From Bdellovibrionota bacterium (GTDB lineage: Bacteria > Bdellovibrionota_C > UBA2361), in NCBI GenBank assembly GCA_044352465.1, contig JBILDU010000057.1, positions 1 to 19,294 on the forward strand: DNA of 19,294 nt, in the 5' to 3' direction. Under the pieces are notes generated by a model that was not told the origin of the DNA, made no database searches, and saw nothing but the letters and a program-made list of their open reading frames with translations. Numbering within the stretch: position 1 is the first letter of the stretch; each line of letters starts with the position of its first letter. A program made the position numbers and the translations under genes. This document shows positions 1-12,885 of this stretch, piece by piece.

Positions 1-801
1 TCGGCCGCCGAGATGTTCTACGACCTTGGCACCCTTCTGCCGGAGGGAAGTGCGGTCGGGGGGGGGTTCTTACAGATTTCGCGCCAGGCCACCCAAAGCT
101 ATAAGGGGCCGGCGCTCCAGCGGGGTGATGCTGAGCCGATCGGTGACCTCATCGATATGGAGGAGGAAGAGCAGGAGTCGCCACCACCAACGCGGCGCGC
201 TCCCGATCAATTCGCACCTCCCAGCCGTTCGCGTGGCGCAGCGACTGAGGTGGCGTTGCGTCCGGTTGAGCGGCAACCGACCCTAGAGGCTGCGCCATTT
301 TCAGCGGTTACCGCCGTGTCGCAAGCCTCACTTGGAAGACCGATGCGCCCCCGCGGGGCAACGGCCTCTCCGCCGGTCTCAGCGGGCCCCATCGATTTTT
401 CTGACGCTGGGGCTCAGCGGTATCAGGAGACCCAAGTCTTGCGAGCTGATGCGGTATTCGAGGATGGCGGAACCACCGACGACGATACCCTCCAGGAGCC
501 GATCAAGATGGAGCGAGTCCTCGCGTATCAGGACCTCGTTTCGCAGGGGTGGACCGAGGCGAAATCGATACCTGCTCGTCCGGTAACGTTAGGGCGGGGG
601 GGGATCGACGATGTGCGTCTGCGTAACCTCTCGCAGGTCGTTGACAGGATGAATCGTTCGATTTGGGTCGATGTTTTGACGTTGGTTTTGATCGTGTTGG
701 TCGGTGTGGGGGTAGGGTTTACCCTCCTGAAGATTTTTGTTCCGGAGGCTCCCGGAACGGCAGCGGTTCACACCAAAGCGGTGGAGGAGCTCTACGAGTA
801 G
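1..801 (+). CDS. 5'-truncated hypothetical membrane-anchored protein (acidic/Pro-rich linker, single C-terminal TM helix)
   Basis: The frame is open from base 1 (tcg gcc gcc gag atg), so the true start probably lies upstream of the window. It has a low-complexity EEEEQESPPP/Pro-Arg-Ala linker and a strongly hydrophobic segment IWVDVLTLVLIVLVGVGVGFTLL near the C-terminus. Stop TAG at 799-801. Confidence 0.7.
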   Translation, partial: SAAEMFYDLGTLLPEGSAVGGGFLQISRQATQSYKGPALQRGDAEPIGDLIDMEEEEQESPPPTRRAPDQFAPPSRSRGAATEVALRPVERQPTLEAAPFSAVTAVSQASLGRPMRPRGATASPPVSAGPIDFSDAGAQRYQETQVLRADAVFEDGGTTDDDTLQEPIKMERVLAYQDLVSQGWTEAKSIPARPVTLGRGGIDDVRLRNLSQVVDRMNRSIWVDVLTLVLIVLVGVGVGFTLLKIFVPEAPGTAAVHTKAVEELYE

Positions 802-940: not shown

Positions 941-2227
941 ATGAAACTTCTCATCGTTGATAACTCAACCGAGTCGCAAGCTTTCTGCGCCAAACGCATC
1001 GAGTCGTTCAATCAGAGCGATATGGAGATGCTCGACCTCAAGGTCAAGCTGGTGAATGAGCGTGACGCCGGGGAGCGCATCCAGGAGGCGGACGTCCTCG
1101 TCCTCGGGTCAGGGCTCGGAGACCGCGGAACAGCTATCGCTCGCCAGGCCATGGGAGCGGTACCGTGGCTTCATATTATCATGTTCGTCACCGATGAGGC
1201 TTACGGCGGGGGAGCTTTCCGTGCGGCACACTCTGCCGGTGTGCGTAAGGTTTTCCCCGATAGCGCTAGTCCGCTCGATTTTCTCCAGGAGCTGGTGGCG
1301 ATCCACGCTGAGTTTCGCCGCGAAGGGCGTACCCGCGAGGGAAAGGTCGTGGCGGTCGCCCACGCCAAAGGTGGAGTCGGAGCAACCTCGGTGGCGGCTG
1401 CTCTCGCCGAGGTGTGCAGTGTCTACCACCGCCGCACGATGTTGTGGGATCTCGACGTGGAGACCCGTGACCTGAGTCGTTCTTTGACCGTCAACGGTGT
1501 GGAGGCGAAGGTCGTCAGTGCGTGGGTGAACGGAAGTCGGGAGATATCGCGCGAATCGTTGAAGGATGCCCTTATCCCGATCAGCAGTGAAGTTTCGGTC
1601 TTGATGCCTCCGGATAGGATGGCTGAGTCGATGGACCTCGTCTGCCACACCGATGGCATGGCGATCACCCAACGGATCGTCGAGCTCTCGCGGGTGTTAT
1701 TCGATGTGATTATCGTTGATACCGGTGGACGGATGGGGCCCGCGACGGGGGCGTTGCTTCGCTCCGCCGACATCGTTGTCATCGTCATCGATGACACGAT
1801 TTTGGGGCTTACCGCCGTAGATCTGTACCTTACCTTTGTGAAGACCCTGGTCGGTGGCACCGACCGGATCGTCTTCCTCGTAAATCCGTACTCCGGCGCG
1901 CTCCTTGGGGTGGAGCAGATCGCAGCGGAGCTCGAACCGGCGCACCATCTGGGGGACGCACCGTGGCGTCTCCCACCGATCCCGAACGATCCGAAGGCGG
2001 CATTGTGGCCTGGGAGTGGTCGAACCCTTTACAGCATGGGGCAAAAGCAGACCCGCGTAGTCCTGGAGAGGATCGCGCGGGATCTTGGTTTGGTTGACGG
2101 GGGCGTCGGGGCTGCCCCGGGGGGCGCAGGTACCGCCGCTAGTGACGAGGTCTCCGAGGGTGGGGGGTGGCTCAATCGCCTTTTTAAAGGAAAGGGGTCC
2201 GGGAAGGTCGCGCCCCCCCGGGCATGA
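941..2227 (+). CDS. cpaE: Tad pilus CpaE/TadZ-family protein (pseudo-receiver domain + MinD/ParA-like ATPase domain)
   Basis: N-terminal receiver-like MKLLIVDN, deviant Walker A KGGVGATS typical of CpaE/TadZ, WDLD and FDVIIVDTG MinD-like motifs, C-terminal amphipathic GWLNRLF membrane-targeting-like helix, and tad context. Confidence 0.85.
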   Translation: MKLLIVDNSTESQAFCAKRIESFNQSDMEMLDLKVKLVNERDAGERIQEADVLVLGSGLGDRGTAIARQAMGAVPWLHIIMFVTDEAYGGGAFRAAHSAGVRKVFPDSASPLDFLQELVAIHAEFRREGRTREGKVVAVAHAKGGVGATSVAAALAEVCSVYHRRTMLWDLDVETRDLSRSLTVNGVEAKVVSAWVNGSREISRESLKDALIPISSEVSVLMPPDRMAESMDLVCHTDGMAITQRIVELSRVLFDVIIVDTGGRMGPATGALLRSADIVVIVIDDTILGLTAVDLYLTFVKTLVGGTDRIVFLVNPYSGALLGVEQIAAELEPAHHLGDAPWRLPPIPNDPKAALWPGSGRTLYSMGQKQTRVVLERIARDLGLVDGGVGAAPGGAGTAASDEVSEGGGWLNRLFKGKGSGKVAPPRA

Positions 2228-2282
2228 TGCTCGTTGTCTCCGTGTCCTTCCGCCTTCATGCGGTCAAGCTCGATCTCGAGTT

Positions 2283-2316
2283 AAATTAAAACCGCGTTAT
2301 TGTCGCGGTGTAATTT
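2283..2316. repeat. Inverted repeat (hairpin or operator) between cpaE and flp
   Basis: AAATTA..ACCGCG (2283-2296) / CGCGGT.TAATTT (2304-2316), 7-nt loop. Confidence 0.5.
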
Positions 2317-2404
2317 TAGGTCTTTAGCTTATGCGGAGACGCTGCTATTCTTGACCCCATTCCTGGAGAGTTATCTCTCAGGTGATATTGCCGGTTTTAG
2401 GTAA

Positions 2405-2441
2405 TGCTATTATCTATTTGCCGTTTTTTAAAGTGAAGGAG
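2405..2441 (+). promoter_or_regulatory. Putative extended -10 promoter and ribosome-binding site of the pilin gene
   Basis: TG-C-TATTAT at 2405-2413 matches TGnTATAAT with one mismatch. AAGGAG SD at 2436-2441 lies 5 nt before ATG 2447. AT-rich surroundings. Confidence 0.45.
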
Positions 2442-2446
2442 ATTTT

Positions 2447-2617
2447 ATGACGACGGAAAATAACGCAGTTCTGACCGAAGAGAGAGGTGCCACCCTGGTT
2501 GAGTACGCTCTCCTCGTTGGCCTGATTACGGTCCTTTGCATCGCCGCCATAACCACGATCGGCAAGAAGACTCAGGAGAAGTTTTCGCAAGTATCTTCAG
2601 CCCTCACAACACCATAA
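2447..2617 (+). CDS. flp: Flp/Fap type IVc (Tad) major pilin, 56 aa (not in the ORF track)
   Basis: Manual translation gives MTTENNAVLTEERG|ATLVEYALLVGLITVLCIAAITTIGKKTQEKFSQVSSALTTP*. It has the class III signal peptide G|xxxxEY Flp motif, a hydrophobic helix and the conserved C-terminal Phe. Strong AAGGAG SD, and it sits upstream of cpaB. Confidence 0.95.
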   Translation: MTTENNAVLTEERGATLVEYALLVGLITVLCIAAITTIGKKTQEKFSQVSSALTTP

Positions 2618-2620
2618 GAA

Positions 2621-2717
2621 TAGCACCGAACTAATTGTGGAGCGGTGTTAAGCTCGGTTGGTAAGTGCCCCTAAAAAGTCCCTTTGGCTTTAGGTGCGTG
2701 AGCCAGCCGAGTTTTTT
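2621..2717 (+). terminator. Tandem hairpins ending in an intrinsic terminator after flp
   Basis: Hairpin 1 is TAGCACCG (2621-2628) / CGGTGTTA (2643-2650). Hairpin 2 is CTCGGTTGG (2653-2661) / CCAGCCGAG (2703-2711) with an inner CCTAAA/TTTAGG stem, followed by T6 (2712-2717). Confidence 0.65.
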
Positions 2718-2733
2718 ATTGCCCAATTTCATC

Positions 2734-2760
2734 TTAAGCATTTGATATTTTAGCCGATAC
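2734..2760 (+). promoter_or_regulatory. Putative sigma28 (FliA/WhiG)-like promoter upstream of cpaB
   Basis: TTAA (2734-2737) - N15 - GCCGATAC (2753-2760) versus consensus TAAA-N15-GCCGATAA. It lies just after the pilin terminator and about 100 nt before cpaB. Confidence 0.5.
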
Positions 2761-2858
2761 TTACCTCGGGGAGTTGCGTCCTCTGTTGCGGTACATGAGC
2801 GGGTTCATCGCTCGGTTAAATTCTAGGTCACCGACGGGACGTTTTCGAGGTGGGGTCT

Positions 2859-3749
2859 ATGGCAAGACATTTCGGTGGTGGAAATCAGATGCGTCAATCG
2901 GAGCGGGCGCGAATCCTGCTCTTGGTTGGTGTTTTTGCGGTGTTGCTTTTCTCAACGCTCGCGTTTCTTTTCATCTCATCGGGTCCGACGACGGCGACGA
3001 CGAAGACGGTCGTTGTCGAGAAGGAGCCTGAGATCAAGATGGCCGACGTTCTGATCCCGGTCGGTGCGATCGAGCCCGGTCAGGTGCTTGAGCCGCTCAT
3101 GTTTCGAAAAGAGTCCCGCCCGCAAGTTGGTCTCTCTCCCCGCGTGGTAAAGGACTTCGAGGAGATCAAGGGGCACTTTTCTCGATCGCTTATTGTCGCC
3201 GATCAGCCCCTTCACCGAGACTACATTACGAACATCCGGCCAACCAACGCTCTCACCGTGAAGATCCCGGAGGGGTTTCGAGCGGTGACGATTAGCGTCG
3301 ACGCTAAAAGTTCAGTTGAGGGATGGGCTCGTCCGGGGGCGCGGGTAGACGTCGTGTGGGCCTCCCGAATTCGGGGGCAGCCGGCGGTTACCGAGATCGT
3401 GCAGAACGCCGAGGTCCTCTCCGCTGAGCGTCAGATCGATGCGAACACCAAAGCGGGGGGCATGGTGCCGAGTACGGTGACCCTGCTCGTGACCGCCAAG
3501 GACGCTGCCAAGATTCAACTCGCGCAAACGACCGGTTCACTTAGCCTAAACCTGCGGGGGGACAACGACGGTGGTCACGGTTCGGCCGGCGGGACCGTTA
3601 CCCTTGATGACCTGACCGGTAACCGTGAGCGCGCTCCGGAGCAGGCCGCGCCGGGTGGAACCGTGAAGATGCGGGGTAAAGACGGGAAGATGGAGGAGTG
3701 GGTCTTTCGCAATGGGAAGCTCGTCCCCGCGACGTTACGGGAAGAGTAG
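2859..3749 (+). CDS. cpaB: Flp pilus assembly protein CpaB/RcpC
   Basis: N-terminal TM helix, SAF-like segment (VLIPVGAIEPGQVL) and RcpC motifs IPEGFRAVTISVD..GWARPGARVDVV, QNAEVLS, TVTLLVT..A.KIQLAQ..GSLSLNLRG. Start placed at ATG 2859 because GAGGTG (2847-2852) is a well-spaced SD; the ORF track starts at GTG 2850. Confidence 0.93.
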   Translation: MARHFGGGNQMRQSERARILLLVGVFAVLLFSTLAFLFISSGPTTATTKTVVVEKEPEIKMADVLIPVGAIEPGQVLEPLMFRKESRPQVGLSPRVVKDFEEIKGHFSRSLIVADQPLHRDYITNIRPTNALTVKIPEGFRAVTISVDAKSSVEGWARPGARVDVVWASRIRGQPAVTEIVQNAEVLSAERQIDANTKAGGMVPSTVTLLVTAKDAAKIQLAQTTGSLSLNLRGDNDGGHGSAGGTVTLDDLTGNRERAPEQAAPGGTVKMRGKDGKMEEWVFRNGKLVPATLREE

Positions 3750-3861
3750 GCGGTTTTATTCGGCGTGGTTGAAGGGAAGCTCCTCGCCCGACAGTTATTC
3801 GGTCGGCGCCTCGTAGCCCTTCGGGACCACCCCGATTAGGAATTTTTGAGGATCGTACCGT

Positions 3862-5370
3862 ATGACTGGAGAAAAAGACAAAGAATCGTTGGTCGGGCTT
3901 TTCTCGACGCGAGCAACGCAGTCGCGGCCGATCGATCGGTCGACGATACTTCCGGCAACCCGTTCTCCATCGACCGCAGCGGGGCCGGCGGGTGAGCAGC
4001 CCAAGTCGATGCGTCCCCCCTCGACCCAAACCCAGCCGGTGAAACCACCAACCGATACCGCTCGGCACCAAAGTCGTTCGCGTCTCTCACCGCTGGCGAG
4101 CACGGTGCTACGGGAAGCTCGTCGCGAACTTGGAAGCGACTACAACCTCCAACAAGCATCGGAGGTGGGGCTTAACATTAGCGAAGCGAATATCGCGCAA
4201 GCGGTCGACCGGGTATTGAAACGACGCGCTGAACCGGTCGACGACATCGAGCGGGCGAACATCATCATCCATCTTCAGAAAGATCTGATGGGATGGGGGG
4301 TGCTGCAGCCGCTCATCGATAATCGAGAGGTCACCGACATCCACTGCTACGACCATCAGACCGTAGTGCTTCAGCGGGGTAAGGTCAGTGAGACTACGGG
4401 GCTGCATTGGCCGAACCAACAGGCCTATGTTGCGTTTATCGACCGTTTGCTGTTACGTCTCGGCAAATCGCTCTCCACTCAGCAGCATACCGTTGATGCC
4501 TCGTTTCCGAACGGGATACGGTTATGCGCTATCCACGAGAGTGTGTGTGGCTCGCGCGGTCCGTTATTGTGTATCCGGGTACCCCGGGTCATGGAAACAA
4601 CCCTCGATAGCTTGGTGACGTACCAAGTGGCTCCGCCCCTGATAGTCAATTACCTCGCTTCTTTGGTGCGGAGTGGCCGCTCGACGATGATGGTGGCGGG
4701 TGAAACCGGTACCGGAAAGACCACATTGATAAAGTGTCTCGGGACTCAGTTTGGTCCGGATGAATCGATCGTCGCGGTTGAGGATACACCCGAGCTTAAT
4801 TTCACCCACCCGTACTTTCGCTCCCTTGTCTCGCGTCCGGCAAATACGGAGGGAGTAGGTGAGGTGACGTTACAGGAGCATATCAAAACGACCCTCCGGA
4901 TGACCCCAACTCGGGTGCTGCTCGGAGAGATGCGAACGCCGTTTGCTGCTGAGGCGTTCCTAGAGAGCGCTCAGACCGGTCACGTGGGGATGTCGACGGT
5001 GCACGCCCGTAACGCACGGGAGACCCTTGTCCGTCTCGAGAGTCTCCTCGGGCGTGCGCAAAAATCGGTTTCGGTCGATATTATCCGGCAACAGATCGCC
5101 TTGGCGGTGGACACCGTCGTGTGGCTGTTTAGAGAAAAGGGAACGGGAAAGCCCCGTGTCGGAGAGATAATCGAGGTAGGTCATTTTGTCGAGGGTGTTA
5201 TCCAGGTTCGCCCGATGTTCACTTTGATTAAAACCGGCGAGCGACCGGTGTGGCGTGTAGACTCGTGGGCGAGCGCCTTCGACGATGTGCTCAGTGAGGA
5301 TGGGATCTATCTGGGAGACTCGCCGCAGGAGATCACCTTTGGTGCAGGGACCGGGCCGGGGCGCGGATAG
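3862..5370 (+). CDS. cpaF: Tad pilus motor ATPase CpaF/TadA
   Basis: GWGVLQPLI..EVTDI N-domain, Walker A GETGTGKTT, Asp box VEDTPEL, Walker B LRMTPTRVLLGEMR and His box TGHVGMSTVHA. Confidence 0.95.
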   Translation: MTGEKDKESLVGLFSTRATQSRPIDRSTILPATRSPSTAAGPAGEQPKSMRPPSTQTQPVKPPTDTARHQSRSRLSPLASTVLREARRELGSDYNLQQASEVGLNISEANIAQAVDRVLKRRAEPVDDIERANIIIHLQKDLMGWGVLQPLIDNREVTDIHCYDHQTVVLQRGKVSETTGLHWPNQQAYVAFIDRLLLRLGKSLSTQQHTVDASFPNGIRLCAIHESVCGSRGPLLCIRVPRVMETTLDSLVTYQVAPPLIVNYLASLVRSGRSTMMVAGETGTGKTTLIKCLGTQFGPDESIVAVEDTPELNFTHPYFRSLVSRPANTEGVGEVTLQEHIKTTLRMTPTRVLLGEMRTPFAAEAFLESAQTGHVGMSTVHARNARETLVRLESLLGRAQKSVSVDIIRQQIALAVDTVVWLFREKGTGKPRVGEIIEVGHFVEGVIQVRPMFTLIKTGERPVWRVDSWASAFDDVLSEDGIYLGDSPQEITFGAGTGPGRG

Positions 5371-5379
5371 GTTTTTAAC

Positions 5380-5409
5380 TCGGCGGGGCCCTCTTGAGGA
5401 TAGCGCCGA
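5380..5409 (+). other. Intergenic hairpin between cpaF and tadB
   Basis: TCGGCG (5380-5385) / CGCCGA (5404-5409) with an inner CCT/AGG stem. A T-run follows 6 nt later. Confidence 0.35.
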
Positions 5410-5472
5410 AACGATTTTTAAATTCAGCCTTGAGATGCTGCGGTCGGGTAGTAAGCGGAGCATAGGACGGAG

Positions 5473-6453
5473 ATGAATCTTACCGTTGTGATCGTGGCGG
5501 TGCTTTTGTTCCTCATGGCGGGGGTGGCCGCAGCTTTTTTCCTGGGGGTGTTCGGCGGGAGCAGCGGTGCGCGGGGTGGGGCACGCGCGAGCATGCGCTC
5601 TATCGTTGAAGCGCAACGGAACGCAACGACCAATCGCCGGGAGAAACCTCAAAAGGTAAGCGTTTTTCAAACTGCGAACGAGTCAAAGGTTCGAAAGGTC
5701 GTCTCGTCTCGGTTAACACTCGCGAAGAGACTAAAGTACGGCCAATGGAAGATGCCCCCCCTCGTATTCCATCTCTTGGAGCTCGGACTCAGCCTCGTCT
5801 CATTTAGTATCGTGGTGTCGTCGTTCAACGTTGTTATACAACTGCTCATGTTGACGACCGGGCCTATCTTTATGCGTTGGTGCCTCAATCGCTCGATCGA
5901 TAAGCGCTTTAAGGCCTTCGACCAGGATTATCCGTCGTTTCTCCTCTCCCTCGTGGGGCTTTTAAAAACCGGTATGAACGTGATGGGAGCCATTGAAGCT
6001 GCGGCTCAAGGGCTTGAGGAGGGATCGCTGGTGAAGCTCGAAGTTGAGCTGATGGTGGAGCGACTCCGTTTCGGAGTCTCCGAAGATAAATCGATCGGCT
6101 CCTTTGGCGAAGATATCTACCACCCCGAGATCGAGCTGTTCGTCCAAGCGCTTCTGCTTAGTCGGCGGGTCGGTGGCACGCTGTCCGACACCCTTGATCG
6201 TTTGGCGAAACAGGTGCGGAAGCGTCAGTTCTTCCGCTCCTCGGCGAGTGCCGCGGTGAGTATGCAGCGTGGTTCAATCTGGTTTATCATCGCGATACTT
6301 GGATTTATTCAACTATACCTTTACTCAGTATACCCCGAAGTGATCACGGGGGCTTGGAAAGATGAGCTCGGCTGGCAGGTTTGGCAAACTGGTATTCTCC
6401 TTATTTTCTTCGGTATTTTCTGGATACGACAAGTCACAAAGATTAGGACGTAG
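5473..6453 (+). CDS. tadB: Tad inner-membrane platform protein TadB (GspF/T2SSF domain)
   Basis: N-terminal TM helix, FDQDYPSFLLSLVGLLKTG, FVQALLLSRRVGGTLSDTLDRLA (TadB GG.L...L..L motif), C-terminal TM helices ending in KIRT, and its position after cpaF. Confidence 0.9.
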   Translation: MNLTVVIVAVLLFLMAGVAAAFFLGVFGGSSGARGGARASMRSIVEAQRNATTNRREKPQKVSVFQTANESKVRKVVSSRLTLAKRLKYGQWKMPPLVFHLLELGLSLVSFSIVVSSFNVVIQLLMLTTGPIFMRWCLNRSIDKRFKAFDQDYPSFLLSLVGLLKTGMNVMGAIEAAAQGLEEGSLVKLEVELMVERLRFGVSEDKSIGSFGEDIYHPEIELFVQALLLSRRVGGTLSDTLDRLAKQVRKRQFFRSSASAAVSMQRGSIWFIIAILGFIQLYLYSVYPEVITGAWKDELGWQVWQTGILLIFFGIFWIRQVTKIRT

Positions 6454-6455
6454 CG

Positions 6456-7388
6456 ATGGAAACGAACGTTATCATCGGTATCGTTGCGATAGTTTTCGCC
6501 CTGATCTCGGCGGGTGGTATCGTCGCTTACTTTTTTTTCCCGCGCCAACAGGTGGACATGCGCTCACTCATGGGATCGGGTGACGCGGCCGGACTGGGTA
6601 AGCCGAGCGAGGTTCGGGAGCGGATTAAAAACGATCCGTCGGGCGAGGAGCTTCAGAAGCTGAAGCAGATGACCCGCGCTAAAATGGCGACCCGTGCGGG
6701 CGCGGTAACCCTTGATGAGAAGTTCTTTCAGGCCGGAATCTTCTCAGACGAAGAGAAAGCCGACTTTCACCGACAGCGGCTCTTGGCGCCTATTATCTGC
6801 GGGCCGCTCACTGCGTTTATGCTCAGCGGTGTCGACACCTTGATTCTCGTGTGTGGCGCGATATTCGGTCTCCTATTCGGGATGCGCCTTCCCTACATAC
6901 TTCTCGACCGACGGATGAAAGCGCGGAGCGAGGAGATTATGTTCTATCTCCCCCTCGTTATCGAGCAGATCGCGATCGGAGTTAGCAGCTCGCTCGACAT
7001 CGGTCCGTGTCTTCAGCGGGTGGTTTCGATGGCTGATGAACGCGATAGCCATAACTGTGTGACTGAGCTCCTCCGCCACGTTCACTTTTACGTCAAGTCA
7101 GGTGCCTCGCTCGAGGATGCACTGAACGAGATCGGCAAGCTTTCGGGCCATACCGAGCTCAAGCACGCCTTCATGTCGCTATCGCAGGTGGCGAAGCACG
7201 GTGGTGAGATCACTCGGCAGCTACAAGAGCTTGCTGATGCAGTGGCGGGGCAACGCGAGACTAAGATCGAAGCAAAAATTAAAAAGCTGGAGCTTGCAGC
7301 TACCGGGCCCGTAGCGCTTGTGTTCGCCGGTTTTCTCATCATCCTCGTGATCGGTTTCGGTATTCAGATTAAGGACTCGTTCAACTAG
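6456..7388 (+). CDS. tadC: Tad inner-membrane platform protein TadC (GspF/T2SSF domain)
   Basis: LPYILLDRR..R..EI..YLPLVIEQIAIGVSSSL, ELKHAFMSLSQVAKHGGEITRQL and C-terminal P.ALVF TM helix. It starts 2 bp after the tadB stop. Confidence 0.9.
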   Translation: METNVIIGIVAIVFALISAGGIVAYFFFPRQQVDMRSLMGSGDAAGLGKPSEVRERIKNDPSGEELQKLKQMTRAKMATRAGAVTLDEKFFQAGIFSDEEKADFHRQRLLAPIICGPLTAFMLSGVDTLILVCGAIFGLLFGMRLPYILLDRRMKARSEEIMFYLPLVIEQIAIGVSSSLDIGPCLQRVVSMADERDSHNCVTELLRHVHFYVKSGASLEDALNEIGKLSGHTELKHAFMSLSQVAKHGGEITRQLQELADAVAGQRETKIEAKIKKLELAATGPVALVFAGFLIILVIGFGIQIKDSFN

Positions 7389-7399
7389 GGGGCCCCGTT

Positions 7400-9544
7400 A
7401 TGCCTGTATCCTCCCCCTTCGGCGCGAGCGCTCCGGTCCAGGCACGGCGGAGCGACCTGGTGCTGGCGCTGTTTGTCGTGGCGATCACGGCGATGCTACT
7501 CGTGCCGCTACCAACGCCGTTGCTCGACGTTCTTCTGGCCGCGAACATCTCCTTCGCGCTGCTTCTCCTGCTCGTGGGGCTTTATATGCCGAACGCCCTG
7601 GCGCTTCTGGCTTTTCCCTCGTTGCTGCTTCTCACCACCCTCTTTCGACTTGCTTTGAACGTTGCTTCTACCCGCTTGATCTTAAGTCAGGGTGATGCGG
7701 GGCGGGTTATCGAAGCTTTTGGGACGTTCCTGATCCGGGGGGAGGTCCTCGTCGGGGTGATAATCTTCACCATCATCACGGTCGTTAACTTTATCGTTAT
7801 CGCCCGAGGGGCAAGTCGGGTCTCTGAGGTGGCGGCCCGATTTGCGCTCGATGCGTTGCCCGGAAAACAGATGGCGATCGATTCCGATCTACGGGCAGGG
7901 CTCCTGAGGCCGGAGGAGGCCCAACGTCGCCGCGAGGATCTACGTAAGGAATCGCAGCTCTACGGTGCCATGGACGGCGCGATGAAGTTTGTCCAAGGCG
8001 ATGCTGTGGCGGGTTTCTTCATCATTTTGACTAATATCGTCGGTGGGCTCTATCTCGGTGTGTCGCATGGGATGGGGTTTTCGGAAGCGGTCGAGACGTA
8101 TACCGTTTTAACGGTGGGTGATGGGCTGGTCACTCAGATCCCCGCACTCCTTATCTCAATCTGCGCCGGTATCGTTGTTACCAGAGTCTCCTCAGGGGAG
8201 AATACCACCTTAGGCTCAGACGTGGGGGCGCAACTTTTCACCCGACCGGGCACCGTGCTTTTCTCAGGCGCGGTCCTCTTTGTCATCGCCACGTTGCCGG
8301 GGGTGCCAACGGTCCCGTTTCTTCTGGTCGGAACCGGGTTCGTGGCCGTGGCGTATGTTTTGATGCGGCGCCACCGCGCAGTGGTCGCTGCGGGACCGGA
8401 GCTTGCGCTCGATGCGCCGCCTCGCGCCGTTGGTGGTGGGGGAGGTGGTGTCGCGGAGCTTGAGGGCCCTGACGACTCGCGTATCCTTATTATCCTCGAC
8501 AGTGCGGTGCTCGCCCGCAGTTACCTCGCTGCAACCGAACGGTATCGGGGATGGTGGGAGGAGCTGCGGTCCGACTTTTACAGTGAGGTAGGGATCCGGC
8601 TTCCCGACCTCGTCGTTTCAAGTGATGAGCGCCTGGTTGCTGGGGGATACCGCGTGCTTATCAACGGGACGATCCTCGATGAGGGAAGTGTCCCCCTTGA
8701 TGCGATGCTTGTCGAGGTAGCGCCAGCTAATGCGGATGCCCTCGGACTCGAAGTCATCGAGCCGGTCGATCACCCGCTGAGTGGGCAGCGGGTTTTTTGG
8801 GCGAAACAGTCAGCCGCGGGAAGGTCGATCGCTGATGCGGCGAATTTGAGAGTTTTTGACTTCTTCGGATTCATCGGTCTCAGAGCTGCGGCGTTTCTGC
8901 AGAGACATCCCGAGGAGATATTCACGCTTACCGAGATGCATGCTCTTTTGAAGGTGGTGGAGAGTCGCCACCCCGGGCTCCTGGCCGATGTCTTTAAAGG
9001 TAATTTTATCAACGTGGCTCGCTTCACCGAGATCTTCCAAGAGCTTATTCGAGAGGGAATCAGCGTCCGGGAGTATCGCCAGATCATCGAAGCGGTGGCG
9101 ACCTACTGCTCGCGGTACAGCTCGCTTGAGATCGATGAATTTGACCTCCACGAAGTAGTTGCTTTCGTGCGAGTCGCTCGACGGCGGCAATTTGTGCCCC
9201 GCTTGCTCTCTCCGCGACGGACCCTACGGGTGGTGACACTCGACGCCCAGCTCGAGCGGGTGCTGGAGGGCGCTGCGGTGGATGCCCCAGAGCTTCCGCT
9301 CGCTATTGAGCCCGATGCGTTGGAGCGGTATGCCCTTGAGCTCGATGCGATCATCGGGCCGGTGCGTTCGCGGGGTGTCCTCCCGGTTGCGGTGTTGTGT
9401 TCCCGGGAGCTGCGGCACAAGGTACTTAATTTTATGCGGACGGCTAATCGCGCGGTTGGTGTGGTGACCTTTGAGGAGCTTGATCCAACCGTCGGGGTGG
9501 AGCCGGTAGGGATCTGGGGTACCGCCGGCGAGAGTGGAAGATAA
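7400..9544 (+). CDS. sctV: Type III secretion export gate, FHIPEP family (SctV/LcrD/FlhA), with injectisome-like signature
   Basis: FPSLLLLTTLFRLALNVASTRLIL, RVSEVAARFALDALPGKQMAIDSDLRAG, ESQLYGAMDGAMKFVQGDA, LTVGDGLVTQIPALLIS..AGIVVTRV and cytoplasmic-domain LIREGISVR..I.EA. Its 714 aa is full length for the family. Confidence 0.92.
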   Translation: MPVSSPFGASAPVQARRSDLVLALFVVAITAMLLVPLPTPLLDVLLAANISFALLLLLVGLYMPNALALLAFPSLLLLTTLFRLALNVASTRLILSQGDAGRVIEAFGTFLIRGEVLVGVIIFTIITVVNFIVIARGASRVSEVAARFALDALPGKQMAIDSDLRAGLLRPEEAQRRREDLRKESQLYGAMDGAMKFVQGDAVAGFFIILTNIVGGLYLGVSHGMGFSEAVETYTVLTVGDGLVTQIPALLISICAGIVVTRVSSGENTTLGSDVGAQLFTRPGTVLFSGAVLFVIATLPGVPTVPFLLVGTGFVAVAYVLMRRHRAVVAAGPELALDAPPRAVGGGGGGVAELEGPDDSRILIILDSAVLARSYLAATERYRGWWEELRSDFYSEVGIRLPDLVVSSDERLVAGGYRVLINGTILDEGSVPLDAMLVEVAPANADALGLEVIEPVDHPLSGQRVFWAKQSAAGRSIADAANLRVFDFFGFIGLRAAAFLQRHPEEIFTLTEMHALLKVVESRHPGLLADVFKGNFINVARFTEIFQELIREGISVREYRQIIEAVATYCSRYSSLEIDEFDLHEVVAFVRVARRRQFVPRLLSPRRTLRVVTLDAQLERVLEGAAVDAPELPLAIEPDALERYALELDAIIGPVRSRGVLPVAVLCSRELRHKVLNFMRTANRAVGVVTFEELDPTVGVEPVGIWGTAGESGR

Positions 9545-9585
9545 TTTCAATGTACCCGCAAGGGTGATTTCGGGGGAGGAGAGAC

Positions 9586-12042
9586 GTGACGACAACCCAA
9601 CCGACGGGAACGCTCGACATCGGCGCACAGCTCGCCGATCTCTACATCGTCGAGAGCCATCTATTGTCTACTCGTTCGGCCGACGCATATCGGGCGCTTG
9701 AGAAAAACCGGGGTGTGCCGTTATGCCTCTGGATGCTCCGCCATCCGCTGGCGCGGCGGTCCCCTGCGGTGCAACGCTTCGCGGATCGACTTGAACGTAT
9801 CGCCGCGCTGCATCCGCCGATGGTTGATATGGTGCGCTATGGCATCGATGCCTCTGGACTCGCATTCTGCGCGGTAGCCGCACTCGATGGACATCCGGTC
9901 GTCTCTGGAAACGTCGAGATTCAGGAGGCCGAACGTCGCTTTGTGTCGTGTGTACGGCTGGTCGAGCGTCTTCATCGCTCGGGGATCGTTTGCGGCGACC
10001 TGTGTGGCAGCTCTTTCTGGGTTGATCGGAGTGGGGATATCCGTTTTGTTGGTCTCATGGGCTCTTTCGACAGCGAGGCTGCCGCAACGGCGATGTTACC
10101 TCCCGCGGAGACGATTCCATTTCTCTCTCCGGAACAGCGCTCAGCTGCTGGGGTAGACGGGGCGAGCGACGTGTTTGCTCTGGGCGTGTTGGGATATTTT
10201 CTTTTCACCGGACGGTACCCCTATGGGGCGGGGCCGGCGAGCCTCATGACGGGCTTTGACCTCTCGCGGGTTGAGCCGCTGAGCCGGTTTGTTGGAGCTC
10301 CACCGGTCTGGGCCGAGGAGGTACTCCGGCGGTGTCTCGAACCGGATACCGCCGCGCGATATCCGAATGCTGGAGCGGTAGCTGAGGCGATCTCCGCAGT
10401 GATCCAACGGGTGCGTGCTCGGGAGAGCGCGCCGATGCAGGTTCAGCGGGAGGGGTCGATCGTTGGATCTCGTCAGTCCACGTCCGCGCACTCTCTTGAG
10501 CCGATGAGCCACGCACCGGTTCCGGTTGAGACGGCGGTCTCGCCTGAAGCGGGGCGCGGGATGGCGCTGCGGGTTGGAATATTGGGGGGCCTCATCATTC
10601 TTATTAGTGGAGTGACGGCTCACTGGTACACCGCGCAGCGGCGCGCACAGGAGGCCGGTCTCCGAGACGAGCTCGCGGTGCATCGCGAAGCGGCGAACAG
10701 TCAGCAGCTTCGTCAGGCTATCGATGTTATCGGTCAAAGCGATAGTGAGCTCCTCGAGCAGGCGAATGAACTTGAGAAGATTACGAATTCGGATGATCCG
10801 ATCGCTCATCAAATCCTCGTGACCAGCGCCAAAGACGCGAAGACGCAACAGATGCGAGCGCTCAGTGAGAAGGCCATTATCGATCGGGCCCGTCGGCTCG
10901 GGCTGATGCGGAGTTCGGAGCAGGTACGACAGTGGCTCCGTGGTCTGAAAGACGGGGATCTGCCGACGGTGTACGAGGCGGTCCTTCGTTCACTTGATAC
11001 GACGCTCCCGATAGAGGCGCGCAAGACTTTGTTGCGCCAAGGCTATGCCTCGGAGCCCAAATTAGTTTTGAAACTTGCCGCCGCGTTAGCGCTCGATTCG
11101 GCCTCATTTGATCAATATCAACCGGTGCTGGCGCAACTTATCGGCGATGCAGCGAGATGGAGTGATGCCAGTGATCATGCCGCACTCTCCCTGATTTTGG
11201 CTTATGAAGAGCTCGCGTTGCTTTTCGGTGATGATATTATTCAGCGGCGCGATCAGATTCCCGACAAGGATGTCGTCTGGCTTTTGAAGATTCTCGCTGG
11301 ACGAGGGGATGTGAACGTCCGGGCGATAGCCAATCTCGCCATAGAGCGGAACGTTTTACCGCCGGTGCCCGCGCAATTCCTGATGCTTGTCCGCGATCGC
11401 ACCGATTTGCCAGCCGATGTTCTGGCGACCCTGGTCCGGGCGGCTGCGGGTGTTCTCCGTTCCGAGGATATCAATCCGCTGGGGCGTTGGTTCGATGTTG
11501 ACGCTGAGCGGGTGCTCTTGGGGATTTGTGCGGTCGGTGCCCCGTCCGAGGTGATGCAGGATGCCTTCGATACCCTCGCAGGGAAGAGCCTGACCCTCGA
11601 GCCGAGCGCGGCTCTCGTCGATTGGGTGCGGCGAAATCAGTGGGAGAACCGTCTGAGCTTCGCCCGTGCGGTGGGCAGTCTCGCCTACGTCGATACCGTT
11701 TCGGAGAGTGAGCTTACCGCCGCCTTCGATAGCCTCGATAAATACATGAAGGATCCGGACCTTATCGATGTACTGCTTGAGGCCAAGAATCCTCGGATAT
11801 CGCAGATTATTGTTCAGCGCTACGCGGGCAGCTTGGGGCTGGGGGGATTAATTAATCTTTTAAGCGACTCGGCCAAGGAAATTCGTATCGCCGCAATCAA
11901 ATCGCTCAAAGATTACAACGATATCGGCGCATTAAAGATTATTATTGATCGGTACGAGCGCGAGCGTGACCCCGCTGTGCGAGAGGCCTATCGGGAGAAT
12001 TTCTGGGTCATCAAGGAGCGGGAGGGGGGACGCAGTCAGTAG
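9586..12042 (+). CDS. Membrane-anchored Hanks-type Ser/Thr kinase-like protein (probable pseudokinase) with helical/HEAT-like C-terminal domain
   Basis: Kinase C-lobe motifs retained (FLSPEQ, SDVFALG, FTGRYPY, RCLEPD..ARYP) but catalytic motifs degenerate. TM helix at about 10573-10629. The C-terminus is HEAT-like (LINLLSDSAKEIRIAAIKSL..; ERDPAVREAY). GGAGGAG SD precedes GTG 9586. Confidence 0.85.
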   Translation: MTTTQPTGTLDIGAQLADLYIVESHLLSTRSADAYRALEKNRGVPLCLWMLRHPLARRSPAVQRFADRLERIAALHPPMVDMVRYGIDASGLAFCAVAALDGHPVVSGNVEIQEAERRFVSCVRLVERLHRSGIVCGDLCGSSFWVDRSGDIRFVGLMGSFDSEAAATAMLPPAETIPFLSPEQRSAAGVDGASDVFALGVLGYFLFTGRYPYGAGPASLMTGFDLSRVEPLSRFVGAPPVWAEEVLRRCLEPDTAARYPNAGAVAEAISAVIQRVRARESAPMQVQREGSIVGSRQSTSAHSLEPMSHAPVPVETAVSPEAGRGMALRVGILGGLIILISGVTAHWYTAQRRAQEAGLRDELAVHREAANSQQLRQAIDVIGQSDSELLEQANELEKITNSDDPIAHQILVTSAKDAKTQQMRALSEKAIIDRARRLGLMRSSEQVRQWLRGLKDGDLPTVYEAVLRSLDTTLPIEARKTLLRQGYASEPKLVLKLAAALALDSASFDQYQPVLAQLIGDAARWSDASDHAALSLILAYEELALLFGDDIIQRRDQIPDKDVVWLLKILAGRGDVNVRAIANLAIERNVLPPVPAQFLMLVRDRTDLPADVLATLVRAAAGVLRSEDINPLGRWFDVDAERVLLGICAVGAPSEVMQDAFDTLAGKSLTLEPSAALVDWVRRNQWENRLSFARAVGSLAYVDTVSESELTAAFDSLDKYMKDPDLIDVLLEAKNPRISQIIVQRYAGSLGLGGLINLLSDSAKEIRIAAIKSLKDYNDIGALKIIIDRYERERDPAVREAYRENFWVIKEREGGRSQ

Positions 12043-12254: not shown

Positions 12255-12274
12255 CTGACACTCGTCAGTTTTTT
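12255..12274 (+). terminator. Short intrinsic terminator-like hairpin
   Basis: CTGAC-actc-GTCAG followed by TTTTTT. Confidence 0.4.
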
Positions 12275-12366
12275 CGAGCTTATTGCCGGGGTGAGTATCA
12301 ACTTCGCCGGATAAGGTGGGACCCGAGAGGTTTTCAGGGGTGCGCTCTTCTGTGAGGAACATTGTC

Positions 12367-12885
12367 ATGAATTGCCTGTCTTTCCTTGTTGTTCGGCTAG
12401 GCATTGTCTTTGTCGCGTTGTCGTTCGCAGGATGCGCAACCGATGGGGCAAAACTTATCGGCAAGCCGGCCCCCGAGACCCGTTTTACTCTTCTCGAAGG
12501 GGAATATGTGCCGCTCAAGCGCTACCGTGGGAAAACGGTCGTCGTAACTTTCTGGGCGCACTGGTGTCACTCTTCGCGACCGGCGTTGCTCCGTCTTGAT
12601 GAGTTTGCCGAGAAGCTCGGTCGGAACGACGTGGTTTTCCTCGCAGCGAACCTCGATGAGGTCAAAGATCTGGCAGAGGTCAAGGAGCGTATCGTGCACC
12701 AAGATCTCGATGGCTTTCAGCACGCGTTTTCAGGGAACGCCGGTTCTGATGAGGCGTTTGTAGCCTTCCAAGGGGGGCGTCTCCCGTACTTCCTTATTAT
12801 CGATCCCCAGGGGGTAGTCGTTGCGGCGGGTAATTCCGATTCGCTTGTTTACGAATACTTCGAAAAGCTTTCGAATGCGTCATAA
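12367..12885 (+). CDS. TlpA/ResA-family thioredoxin-like lipoprotein with CxxS active site
   Basis: Lipobox FAG|C, IGKPAP.....LEG..V.L..YRGKTVVVTFWAHWCHSS, cis-Pro motif LPYFLIIDPQG. Start moved to ATG 12367 (SD GAGGA 12354-12358). Confidence 0.85.
   Translation: MNCLSFLVVRLGIVFVALSFAGCATDGAKLIGKPAPETRFTLLEGEYVPLKRYRGKTVVVTFWAHWCHSSRPALLRLDEFAEKLGRNDVVFLAANLDEVKDLAEVKERIVHQDLDGFQHAFSGNAGSDEAFVAFQGGRLPYFLIIDPQGVVVAAGNSDSLVYEYFEKLSNAS

Follow-up and report, generated by a model that had tools for sequence, protein, structure and literature searches.

The window analysed here is the whole of contig JBILDU010000057.1 (C47; 19,294 bp) from a metagenome assembly labelled Bdellovibrionota (source genome G000; 3.13 Mb in 170 contigs, 94.9% complete), and it carries a Tad/Flp pilus operon that continues into a gene of the FHIPEP export-gate family and a gene for a membrane pseudokinase. 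The six genes of the Tad/Flp set all lie on the plus strand, in order. They encode a CpaE/TadZ-like ParA-type ATPase (941..2227; AAA_31, 47 bits), a 56-residue Flp-type pilin (2447..2617; PF04964, 43 bits against a cut-off of 32.2) with a G/ATLVEY processing motif visible in the translation, CpaB/RcpC (2850..3749; TIGR03177, 130 bits against a cut-off of 71, plus RcpC and SAF domains), the secretion ATPase CpaF/TadA (3862..5370; T2SSE, 106 bits), and the platform proteins TadB (5473..6453) and TadC (6456..7388), each matching T2SSF with 46 bits. The CpaE protein shares 65-82% identity with its orthologues in the syntenic loci described below. In the Pfam scan, the N-terminal 233 residues of CpaF had no match and no FHA domain was found in the protein.

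The stop codon of tadC (TAG, 7386-7388) is separated by 11 nt (7389..7399) from the ATG (7400) of a divergent sctV-like gene (7400..9544, plus strand), whose 714-residue product matched PF00771 with 590 bits over profile positions 1-655 of 657. After the stop codon of this gene (TAA, 9542-9544) and a further 41 nt (9545..9585) containing a GGAGGAG ribosome-binding site, a GTG (9586) starts the gene of an 818-residue single-pass membrane pseudokinase (9586..12042, plus strand), which gave a HEAT match and a sub-threshold Pkinase match (23 bits against a cut-off of 31.7). Both junctions were read directly from the sequence. The gene order, the strand and the two short gaps had been noted in an earlier reading of the stretch by a model that saw only the letters (the sequence-only reading), and they were borne out by the open reading frames (ORFs) and by the Pfam and TIGR profiles. 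That reading had also seen no evident terminator between tadC, sctV and the kinase gene, and neither gap held a terminator-like or promoter-like site in our scan, which was weak (17 terminator-like sites versus 14.8 ± 4.3 in shuffles). The arrangement suggests that the tad genes, sctV and the pseudokinase gene are co-transcribed.

Comparison with related genomes showed that this linkage is real and conserved. A search of 40 relatives with the FHIPEP protein typically returned three classes of match, namely the orthologue (40-82% identity), a flagellar FlhA-type protein (about 35%) and a short protein of about 620 residues that matched in the membrane domain only. Around the orthologues, 29 loci from 21 families of the window's order were examined; tadC lay directly upstream in 28 of them and the pseudokinase gene downstream in 27, the misses being L038, which is on a 2.9-kb contig, and L032, in which the 1.1 kb available held no kinase match. 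The junctions are short in the relatives and overlapping in L043, L045 and L144, and in several of them the pseudokinase gene abuts or overlaps sctV. Across all 124 genomes filed in the phylum, the Tad-type FHIPEP was detected at E<=1e-115, a threshold too strict for the more distant genomes, in 83 of the 91 belonging to the window's order and 4 of the remaining 33. When related loci were sought with the same protein, mostly canonical SctVs were listed, and among the 80 loci listed only L043 and L045 had Tad synteny. The junctions were also found in other lake-water metagenome runs: that between tadC and sctV is bridged by the independent contig X8 record 27, and that between sctV and the kinase gene by X5 record 5, X6 record 14 and X8 record 30, all of them short contigs, none of which covers the whole stretch. 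The adjacency that the sequence-only reading had wanted checked in relatives, and against a chimeric assembly, was therefore upheld on both counts. Compared with a genome of the same genus, tadC, sctV and the kinase-like gene had nonsynonymous divergences (dN) of 0.10-0.16 (0.13 for sctV) with saturated synonymous divergence (dS), and all three genes are under purifying selection.

The window gate scored below the curated cut-offs of both known kinds of FHIPEP protein. It reached 571 bits to the SctV equivalog TIGR01399 (hrcV; cut-off 692.25), which was passed by all 35 external SctVs tested (743-966 bits), and 523 bits to the FlhA equivalog TIGR01398 (cut-off 772.1), to which the real FlhA of the genome gave 839 bits (855 bits to PF00771). 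This true flhA is located on contig C117 within the flagellar cluster motAB-fliLMNOP-fliR-flhB-flhA-flhF-flhG-fliA. A quick maximum-likelihood tree (58 rows, LG+G4, with Shimodaira-Hasegawa-like approximate likelihood-ratio (SH-aLRT) support only) was rooted on three FlhA proteins from the window's order. It grouped the Tad-linked FHIPEPs in a single clade (17 rows, 99% SH-aLRT), separate from FlhA, the short FHIPEPs (3 rows, 100) and the canonical SctVs (35 rows, 99), those of Myxococcota included, without fixing the branching order of the Tad-linked, short and canonical groups. Judged by its sequence, the Tad-linked FHIPEP represents a third kind of export gate, distinct from FlhA and from canonical SctV. 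The name SctV given in the sequence-only reading thus holds for a full-length FHIPEP export gate but not for a canonical SctV. With SctV and FlhA the protein shares the full-length architecture, consisting of a membrane domain of about 320 residues with the conserved gate motifs and a cytoplasmic domain of about 390 residues; it differs from them in its scores and separate clade and in being encoded after tadC, not among sct or fli genes. In FlhA/SctV studies, these conserved gate motifs are the ones that work together with SctRSTU. An alignment of 27 Tad-type orthologues contained 61 invariant columns, mostly in the membrane domain and including the MDGA...GD stretch typical of the family, and since dN/dS is also well below 1, the Tad-linked gate is probably functional. 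Three relatives, G023, G045 and G050, were without an FlhA-type FHIPEP, and G023 also without a flagellar-type fliP, while both non-flagellar FHIPEP classes were kept in all three; flagella were lost there and the type III-like systems retained. Because the source genome has its separate flhA on C117 and these three genomes keep the Tad-type gene with no FlhA-type gene, the gate is not flagellar.

The pseudokinase was analysed by an alignment of 10 full-length orthologues with 24-49% identity to the window protein. The glycine loop and the VAIK lysine are absent, HRD is changed to CGD with the Asp of this motif kept in 9 of the 10, the catalytic-loop Lys and Asn are lost, and DFG is replaced by a GLMG-like sequence, while APE and the later Asp and Arg are retained. 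In the AlphaFold2 model (mean predicted local distance difference test (pLDDT) score 81), residues 16-281 form a kinase-like fold, which is followed by a disordered linker, a transmembrane helix at about residues 325-345, and an all-helical HEAT-like solenoid at about residues 373-817 with a HEAT_2 hit. The best Foldseek matches in the PDB were PknA, PknB and Stk1 (TM-scores of 0.72-0.74 on the target, about 21% identity). The membrane pseudokinase proposed from the letters was thus confirmed by the degenerate motifs and by the modelled fold, and the predicted protein has the build of a receptor kinase without the catalytic equipment. Complex prediction of the cytoplasmic domain of SctV (330-714) with the kinase-like domain (1-310), both with alignments, gave no verdict (score 0.00, without controls). 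A protein of the same build but with an intact Pkinase domain (617 aa, 170 bits, C-terminal HEAT repeats) is encoded elsewhere in the genome, on contig C55 (2753-7803, minus strand), together with TadE-like and TadG-like pilins and a CpaB paralogue (219 bits to the window CpaB).

In six genomes, the genes of the window belong to a single supercluster on one strand, one of them (G005, family f2) within the window's own order and five (G045, G064, G070, G050 and G051) from other orders. The supercluster starts with PP2C, FHA and active kinase genes, runs through cpaE, flp, cpaB, cpaF, tadB, tadC, sctV and the pseudokinase gene, and goes on with genes for a double-FHA protein, a second FHA protein, sctJ, a small ORF, a sctO/FliJ-like gene, sctQ, sctR, sctS, sctT, sctU, one ORF and a TPR gene; the readable length varies with the contig, and G070 and G064 end after sctQ. 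The genes behind the pseudokinase gene in these genomes are orthologues (27-59% identity) of genes on contig C118 of the source genome, and the cluster resumes on contig C33 with sctU, which is followed by a small ORF and a TPR gene. In G014, G080, G018, G013, G011, G023, G026, G092 and G022, the Tad part and the part from the double-FHA gene onward lie far apart or on different large contigs. Because the fused form was found both inside and outside the window's order, it is probably ancestral, with the sct genes ancestrally placed directly behind the Tad operon, and in most of the order the genes from the double-FHA gene onward appear to have moved away. The genetic linkage of the Tad and type III machineries that the sequence-only reading had proposed is therefore carried by two lines of evidence, the conserved order of tadC, sctV and pseudokinase and the six fused superclusters. 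From a supercluster that was probably single in the ancestor, the window holds the Tad half together with two of the type III genes.

The type III half of the source genome was found on C118, which carries a divergent response-regulator gene, genes for the double-FHA protein and the second FHA protein, sctJ, two small ORFs, a sctQ-like gene, sctR, sctS and a probable sctT reaching the contig end, and on C33, which begins with a 5'-open sctU, the small ORF and the TPR gene; sctV is absent from both. Counted over the whole genome, there are three homologues of sctR/fliP, two sctJ genes and three that encode FHIPEP proteins. The C118-type cluster was also without sctV and without an ATPase gene in G080, where it lies on one contig, and in G018. 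Since the only sctR genes of G080 are the flagellar and the C118-type ones, and its only FHIPEP genes those of FlhA and of the Tad-type gate, the C118-type cluster pairs with the gate of the Tad operon. The C118-type SctQ was found in 87 of the order's 91 genomes and in 17 of the 33 outside it, and both SctQ and the gate in 82 of the 91 at the thresholds used; the genomes missing one of them are mostly 55-89% complete. No genes for needle, secretin, translocon, SctN or SctL were found in any cluster read, in Pfam scans of the cluster ORFs only. SctU of the Tad-linked clusters stops just after the last membrane helix, and the NPTH autocleavage motif was missing in all five examined, in comparison with the flagellar FlhB of the genome, which has NPTH at residue 271; the loss of this switch domain fits a system that has no needle or hook to switch from. 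The sequence-only reading had allowed that the gene might be the ordinary sctV of a complete canonical system whose genes are simply scattered. Part of this was found, since the gate is not alone and the other genes of its set lie elsewhere on C118 and C33, but the set is not a complete canonical one, its cluster being without needle, secretin and ATPase and its SctU without the NPTH switch domain.

Several components would have to come from outside the cluster. Secretin (CpaC/RcpA) and prepilin peptidase genes were found neither in the window nor in the fused clusters, and elsewhere in the genome there are two secretins, on C56 and C97, and one Peptidase_A24 prepilin peptidase, on C85. Type III secretion system (T3SS)-type ATPases numbered two for three FHIPEP gates in G000, G018, G011 and G005, one for two in G023 and G045, three for three in G051 and G070, and two for two in G050. 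Of those in the source genome, one (392 bits, just above the fliI/yscN cut-off) is encoded with a FliH/SctL-like gene among flgE, fliK and flgD on C107 (1361-3403, minus strand), and the FliI with the higher score, 583 bits, is encoded near fliF on C60. Genes of a second type III-like set, again not flagellar, were observed on C168 (50574-54877), with sctJ, two ORFs without an assigned role, a short 605-residue FHIPEP (membrane domain plus a C-terminal domain that matches weakly) and a TPR gene, and on C136 (1792-9238), where sctR-S-T and a truncated sctU are accompanied by genes for a GAF/PAS histidine kinase and an FHA protein. In the search of the 40 relatives, this short FHIPEP class was present in most genomes of the order.

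The remaining genes of the window lie on both sides of the operon. Upstream is the 3' part of a Ser/Thr kinase gene (1..801, plus strand), which is truncated at its 5' side by the contig end and has no Pfam match; its product resembles the C-terminal regions of active kinases that precede cpaE in relatives (42% identity over 81 aa with L045, 42% over 67 aa with L145 and 30% over 87 aa with L124). Contig C114 (6672-11398) has at its end genes for a REC-domain protein and PP2C, which precede the Tad operon in relatives, and contig C8 (6050-7207) has at its end the N-terminal part of a Ser/Thr kinase; these two are probably the missing upstream neighbours of the window's contig. Downstream, an AhpC/TSA-thioredoxin-like gene (12316..12885, plus strand; AhpC-TSA, 47 bits) is separated from the pseudokinase gene by a terminator-like hairpin and T-run at 12255-12268, and its orthologues occupy the same position in L124, L045 and L128 with 31-43% identity. 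Past 12.9 kb, the minus strand carries unrelated housekeeping genes for pyruvate phosphate dikinase, an S9 peptidase and a low-molecular-weight phosphatase. Elsewhere in the genome, a second Tad locus on C159 (8564-19375) consists of a cpaE-like gene, cpaB, cpaF, tadB and a long tadC of 732 aa followed by response-regulator and hybrid histidine-kinase genes, and the kinase on C55 mentioned above is an active Ser/Thr kinase. Another grouping of ParA ATPase and kinase is found on C134 (9507-14584, minus strand), where genes for a cpaE-like ATPase and a response regulator lie together with those for a divergent AAA/secretion-ATPase-like protein and an active Ser/Thr kinase.

Taken together, we consider it probable, with some reserve, that the locus encodes a Tad pilus and, coupled to it under Ser/Thr phospho-signalling, a T3SS-like export core without a needle; the whole resembles the Kil pilus and T3SS* of Myxococcus xanthus in architecture and is not orthologous to them. 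In this model, the tad genes, sctV and the pseudokinase gene would be expressed from a single transcript, and the sctV-like product would be the large export-gate subunit of a core without needle and secretin, the other parts of which would be two FHA proteins (one of them SctD-like), SctJ, the SctO/FliJ-like protein, SctQ, SctR, SctS, SctT, the SctU without switch domain and the TPR protein. The Ser/Thr kinase, the PP2C phosphatase and the FHA readers of phosphopeptides, whose genes stand at the cluster's head and within it, would switch on assembly, and the single-pass pseudokinase may act as a non-catalytic scaffold or sensor beside the gate. The T3SS-like core would then take proteins through the inner membrane, and the outer route or the contact between cells would be supplied by the Tad pilus together with a secretin whose gene lies elsewhere, by analogy with the model proposed for Kil and T3SS*. 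The analysis shows which genes are present and in what order, their conservation and co-inheritance, the purifying selection on them, the intact motifs of the gate and the dead ones of the kinase; co-transcription, physical coupling, the substrates and a role in cell-cell attack are what we infer beyond this.

A tighter form of this coupling, a single physical trans-envelope machine, is possible but unlikely in our estimate. SctV and SctRSTU would sit within rings of SctJ and FHA proteins and feed the base of the Flp pilus, the pilus would replace the needle, the pseudokinase would tie the gate to TadB/TadC, and contact would trigger firing by way of Ser/Thr phosphorylation that the FHA domains read; if true, it would mean a class of hybrid secretion systems older and wider than the Kil/T3SS* pair of Myxococcus. 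It is rather unlikely, in turn, that the pilus and the T3SS-like core are physically separate and that their genes cluster only through sharing a kinase/phosphatase/FHA regulon. Such co-regulation is in keeping with the PP2C, FHA and active kinase genes at the head of the cluster and the further FHA proteins inside it, and with the position of the T3SS-like genes in most of the window's order, at another locus beside a divergent response-regulator gene of their own; yet it leaves unexplained why, at the split, sctV (11 nt behind tadC) and the pseudokinase gene stayed in the tad unit instead of going with the other sct genes. Moreover, the clusters of Myxococcus are separate, yet PMC12075869 describes the two systems as co-localising and T3SS* as recruited by Kil. 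The same retention of both genes behind tadC after rearrangement would suit a further explanation, that FHIPEP and pseudokinase became true Tad components independent of the sctRSTU core, for example as a proton-driven gate or assembly factor for TadB/TadC, as would the separate clade of the FHIPEP below both equivalog cut-offs and the deficit of T3SS-type ATPases relative to gates (two for three in G000, G018, G011 and G005, one for two in G023). We regard this as improbable, since the C118-type core has no sctV of its own, co-occurs with the Tad-type gate in those 82 of 91 genomes and is contiguous with it in six, and since the motifs conserved in the gate are those used with SctRSTU. Finally, a flagellated genome in a metagenome assembly of 170 contigs might be expected to offer a spare or paralogous flagellar flhA, or an assembly artefact, and either is extremely improbable here. 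A spare flhA was ruled out by the true flhA in the flagellar cluster of C117 and by the three genomes that keep the Tad-type gene without flhA, and a chimera by the synteny in 28 of 29 loci from other assemblies and by the independent contigs bridging both junctions.

Some observations weigh against the coupling of a Tad pilus to a T3SS-like core as favoured above. The rest of the T3SS-like genes moved away in the window's lineage, so that contiguity with them seems dispensable and only sctV and the pseudokinase gene stay with the tad genes; this split may also be a single inherited event, in which case the many genomes sharing it are not independent support. Co-transcription was deduced from short gaps and from the lack of predicted terminators, a weak test. 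The genes for secretin, prepilin peptidase and T3SS ATPase are not in the cluster, with two T3SS-type ATPases elsewhere in the genome for three gates. The CpaF of the window has no FHA fusion and shares only 27% identity (120 bits) with the FHA-fused Kil-type ATPase of Archangium gephyra, its best match in that species, which adjoins a short secretin and a double-FHA protein in a Kil-like arrangement, and the Tad-linked SctV falls outside the canonical clade that holds the SctVs of Myxococcota. Predation is a guess from the NCBI label of an uncultured organism.

Among known systems, the Tad/Flp (Cpa) loci of Caulobacter and Aggregatibacter share with the window the Flp pilin, CpaB, CpaE/TadZ, CpaF/TadA, TadB and TadC in the usual order; the cluster here differs in being without secretin, prepilin peptidase, TadD and minor pilin genes, in the kinase/phosphatase/FHA module that precedes it and in the type III genes that follow. 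The pseudokinase is built like the single-pass receptor Ser/Thr kinases PknB and PknA, with a cytoplasmic Hanks-type fold, one transmembrane helix and an extracytoplasmic domain, but its catalytic motifs are degenerate and its outer domain is a helical HEAT-like solenoid of about 450 residues instead of PASTA repeats. EssB/YukC is the membrane pseudokinase of type VIIb secretion, and the likeness to it is one of concept, that of a dead kinase encoded within a secretion-system cluster. No published description of a tad-sctV operon was found in our literature searches, which did not cover the supplements of the Kil papers listing Kil homologues in Bdellovibrionales.

The closest parallel in architecture is the pair formed by the Kil pilus and T3SS* of M. 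xanthus. According to PMC8460266 and PMC12075869, Kil is Tad-like, T3SS* is needle-less and the two are encoded in separate clusters, T3SS* (mxan_2434-2464) lying apart from two kil clusters, whereas here there is one cluster or a shared sctV-pseudokinase pair. PMC12075869 states that Kil recruits T3SS*, that both co-localise at prey contacts, 'probably' forming a larger complex, and that T3SS* has its own SctN ATPase; in the clusters described here sctN is absent, SctU is truncated and a pseudokinase is added. How or whether the Kil pilus and T3SS* join is presented there as an open question, with the link resting on localisation and genetics (PMC12075869; PMC12428579). No Tad genes were found within 8 kb of the 13 Myxococcota-labelled SctV loci placed in our tree. 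The double-FHA protein of C118 was also compared with that beside the Archangium Kil-type ATPase; the likeness is at the level of the FHA domain only, and we do not call the two orthologous. The comparison with Myxococcus made in the sequence-only reading therefore stands for architecture but not for kinship, which the low identity and missing FHA domain of CpaF and the position of the gate in the SctV tree speak against.

What the locus and the Myxococcus pair have in common is a pilus machine of Tad type that goes with a T3SS-like basal body without needle, secretin and translocon, the content of T3SS* (SctV, R, S, T, U, J, D-like and Q, with no needle, secretin or translocon genes) being found in the fused clusters and in C118 and C33 together with the gate. 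Both are also rich in FHA-domain proteins, the fused clusters here having one such protein upstream and two downstream, and C118 two, and in PMC8460266 and PMC12075869 FHA proteins are suspected in Kil/T3SS* of acting in signalling, with a cascade upstream of assembly. A 2025 review describes the co-occurrence of Kil and T3SS* as apparently restricted to one myxobacterial suborder (PMC12428579), in contrast to the host lineage here, labelled Bdellovibrionota. The present locus would extend the joint distribution of Tad pili and needle-less type III cores beyond that suborder, to a second, distantly related lineage that writes the partnership into its gene order, as a single cluster in some genomes and as a sctV-pseudokinase pair shared within the tad operon in about 80 other genomes. 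As comparative evidence of an independent kind, this indicates that the two machineries, Tad pilus and needle-less type III core, may work as a unit, and it points to candidate parts for their coupling and control, namely the pseudokinase, the FHA proteins and the pair of kinase and PP2C. The third FHIPEP clade, beside FlhA and the canonical SctV to which the Myxococcota proteins belong, bears in addition on the diversification of type III systems.

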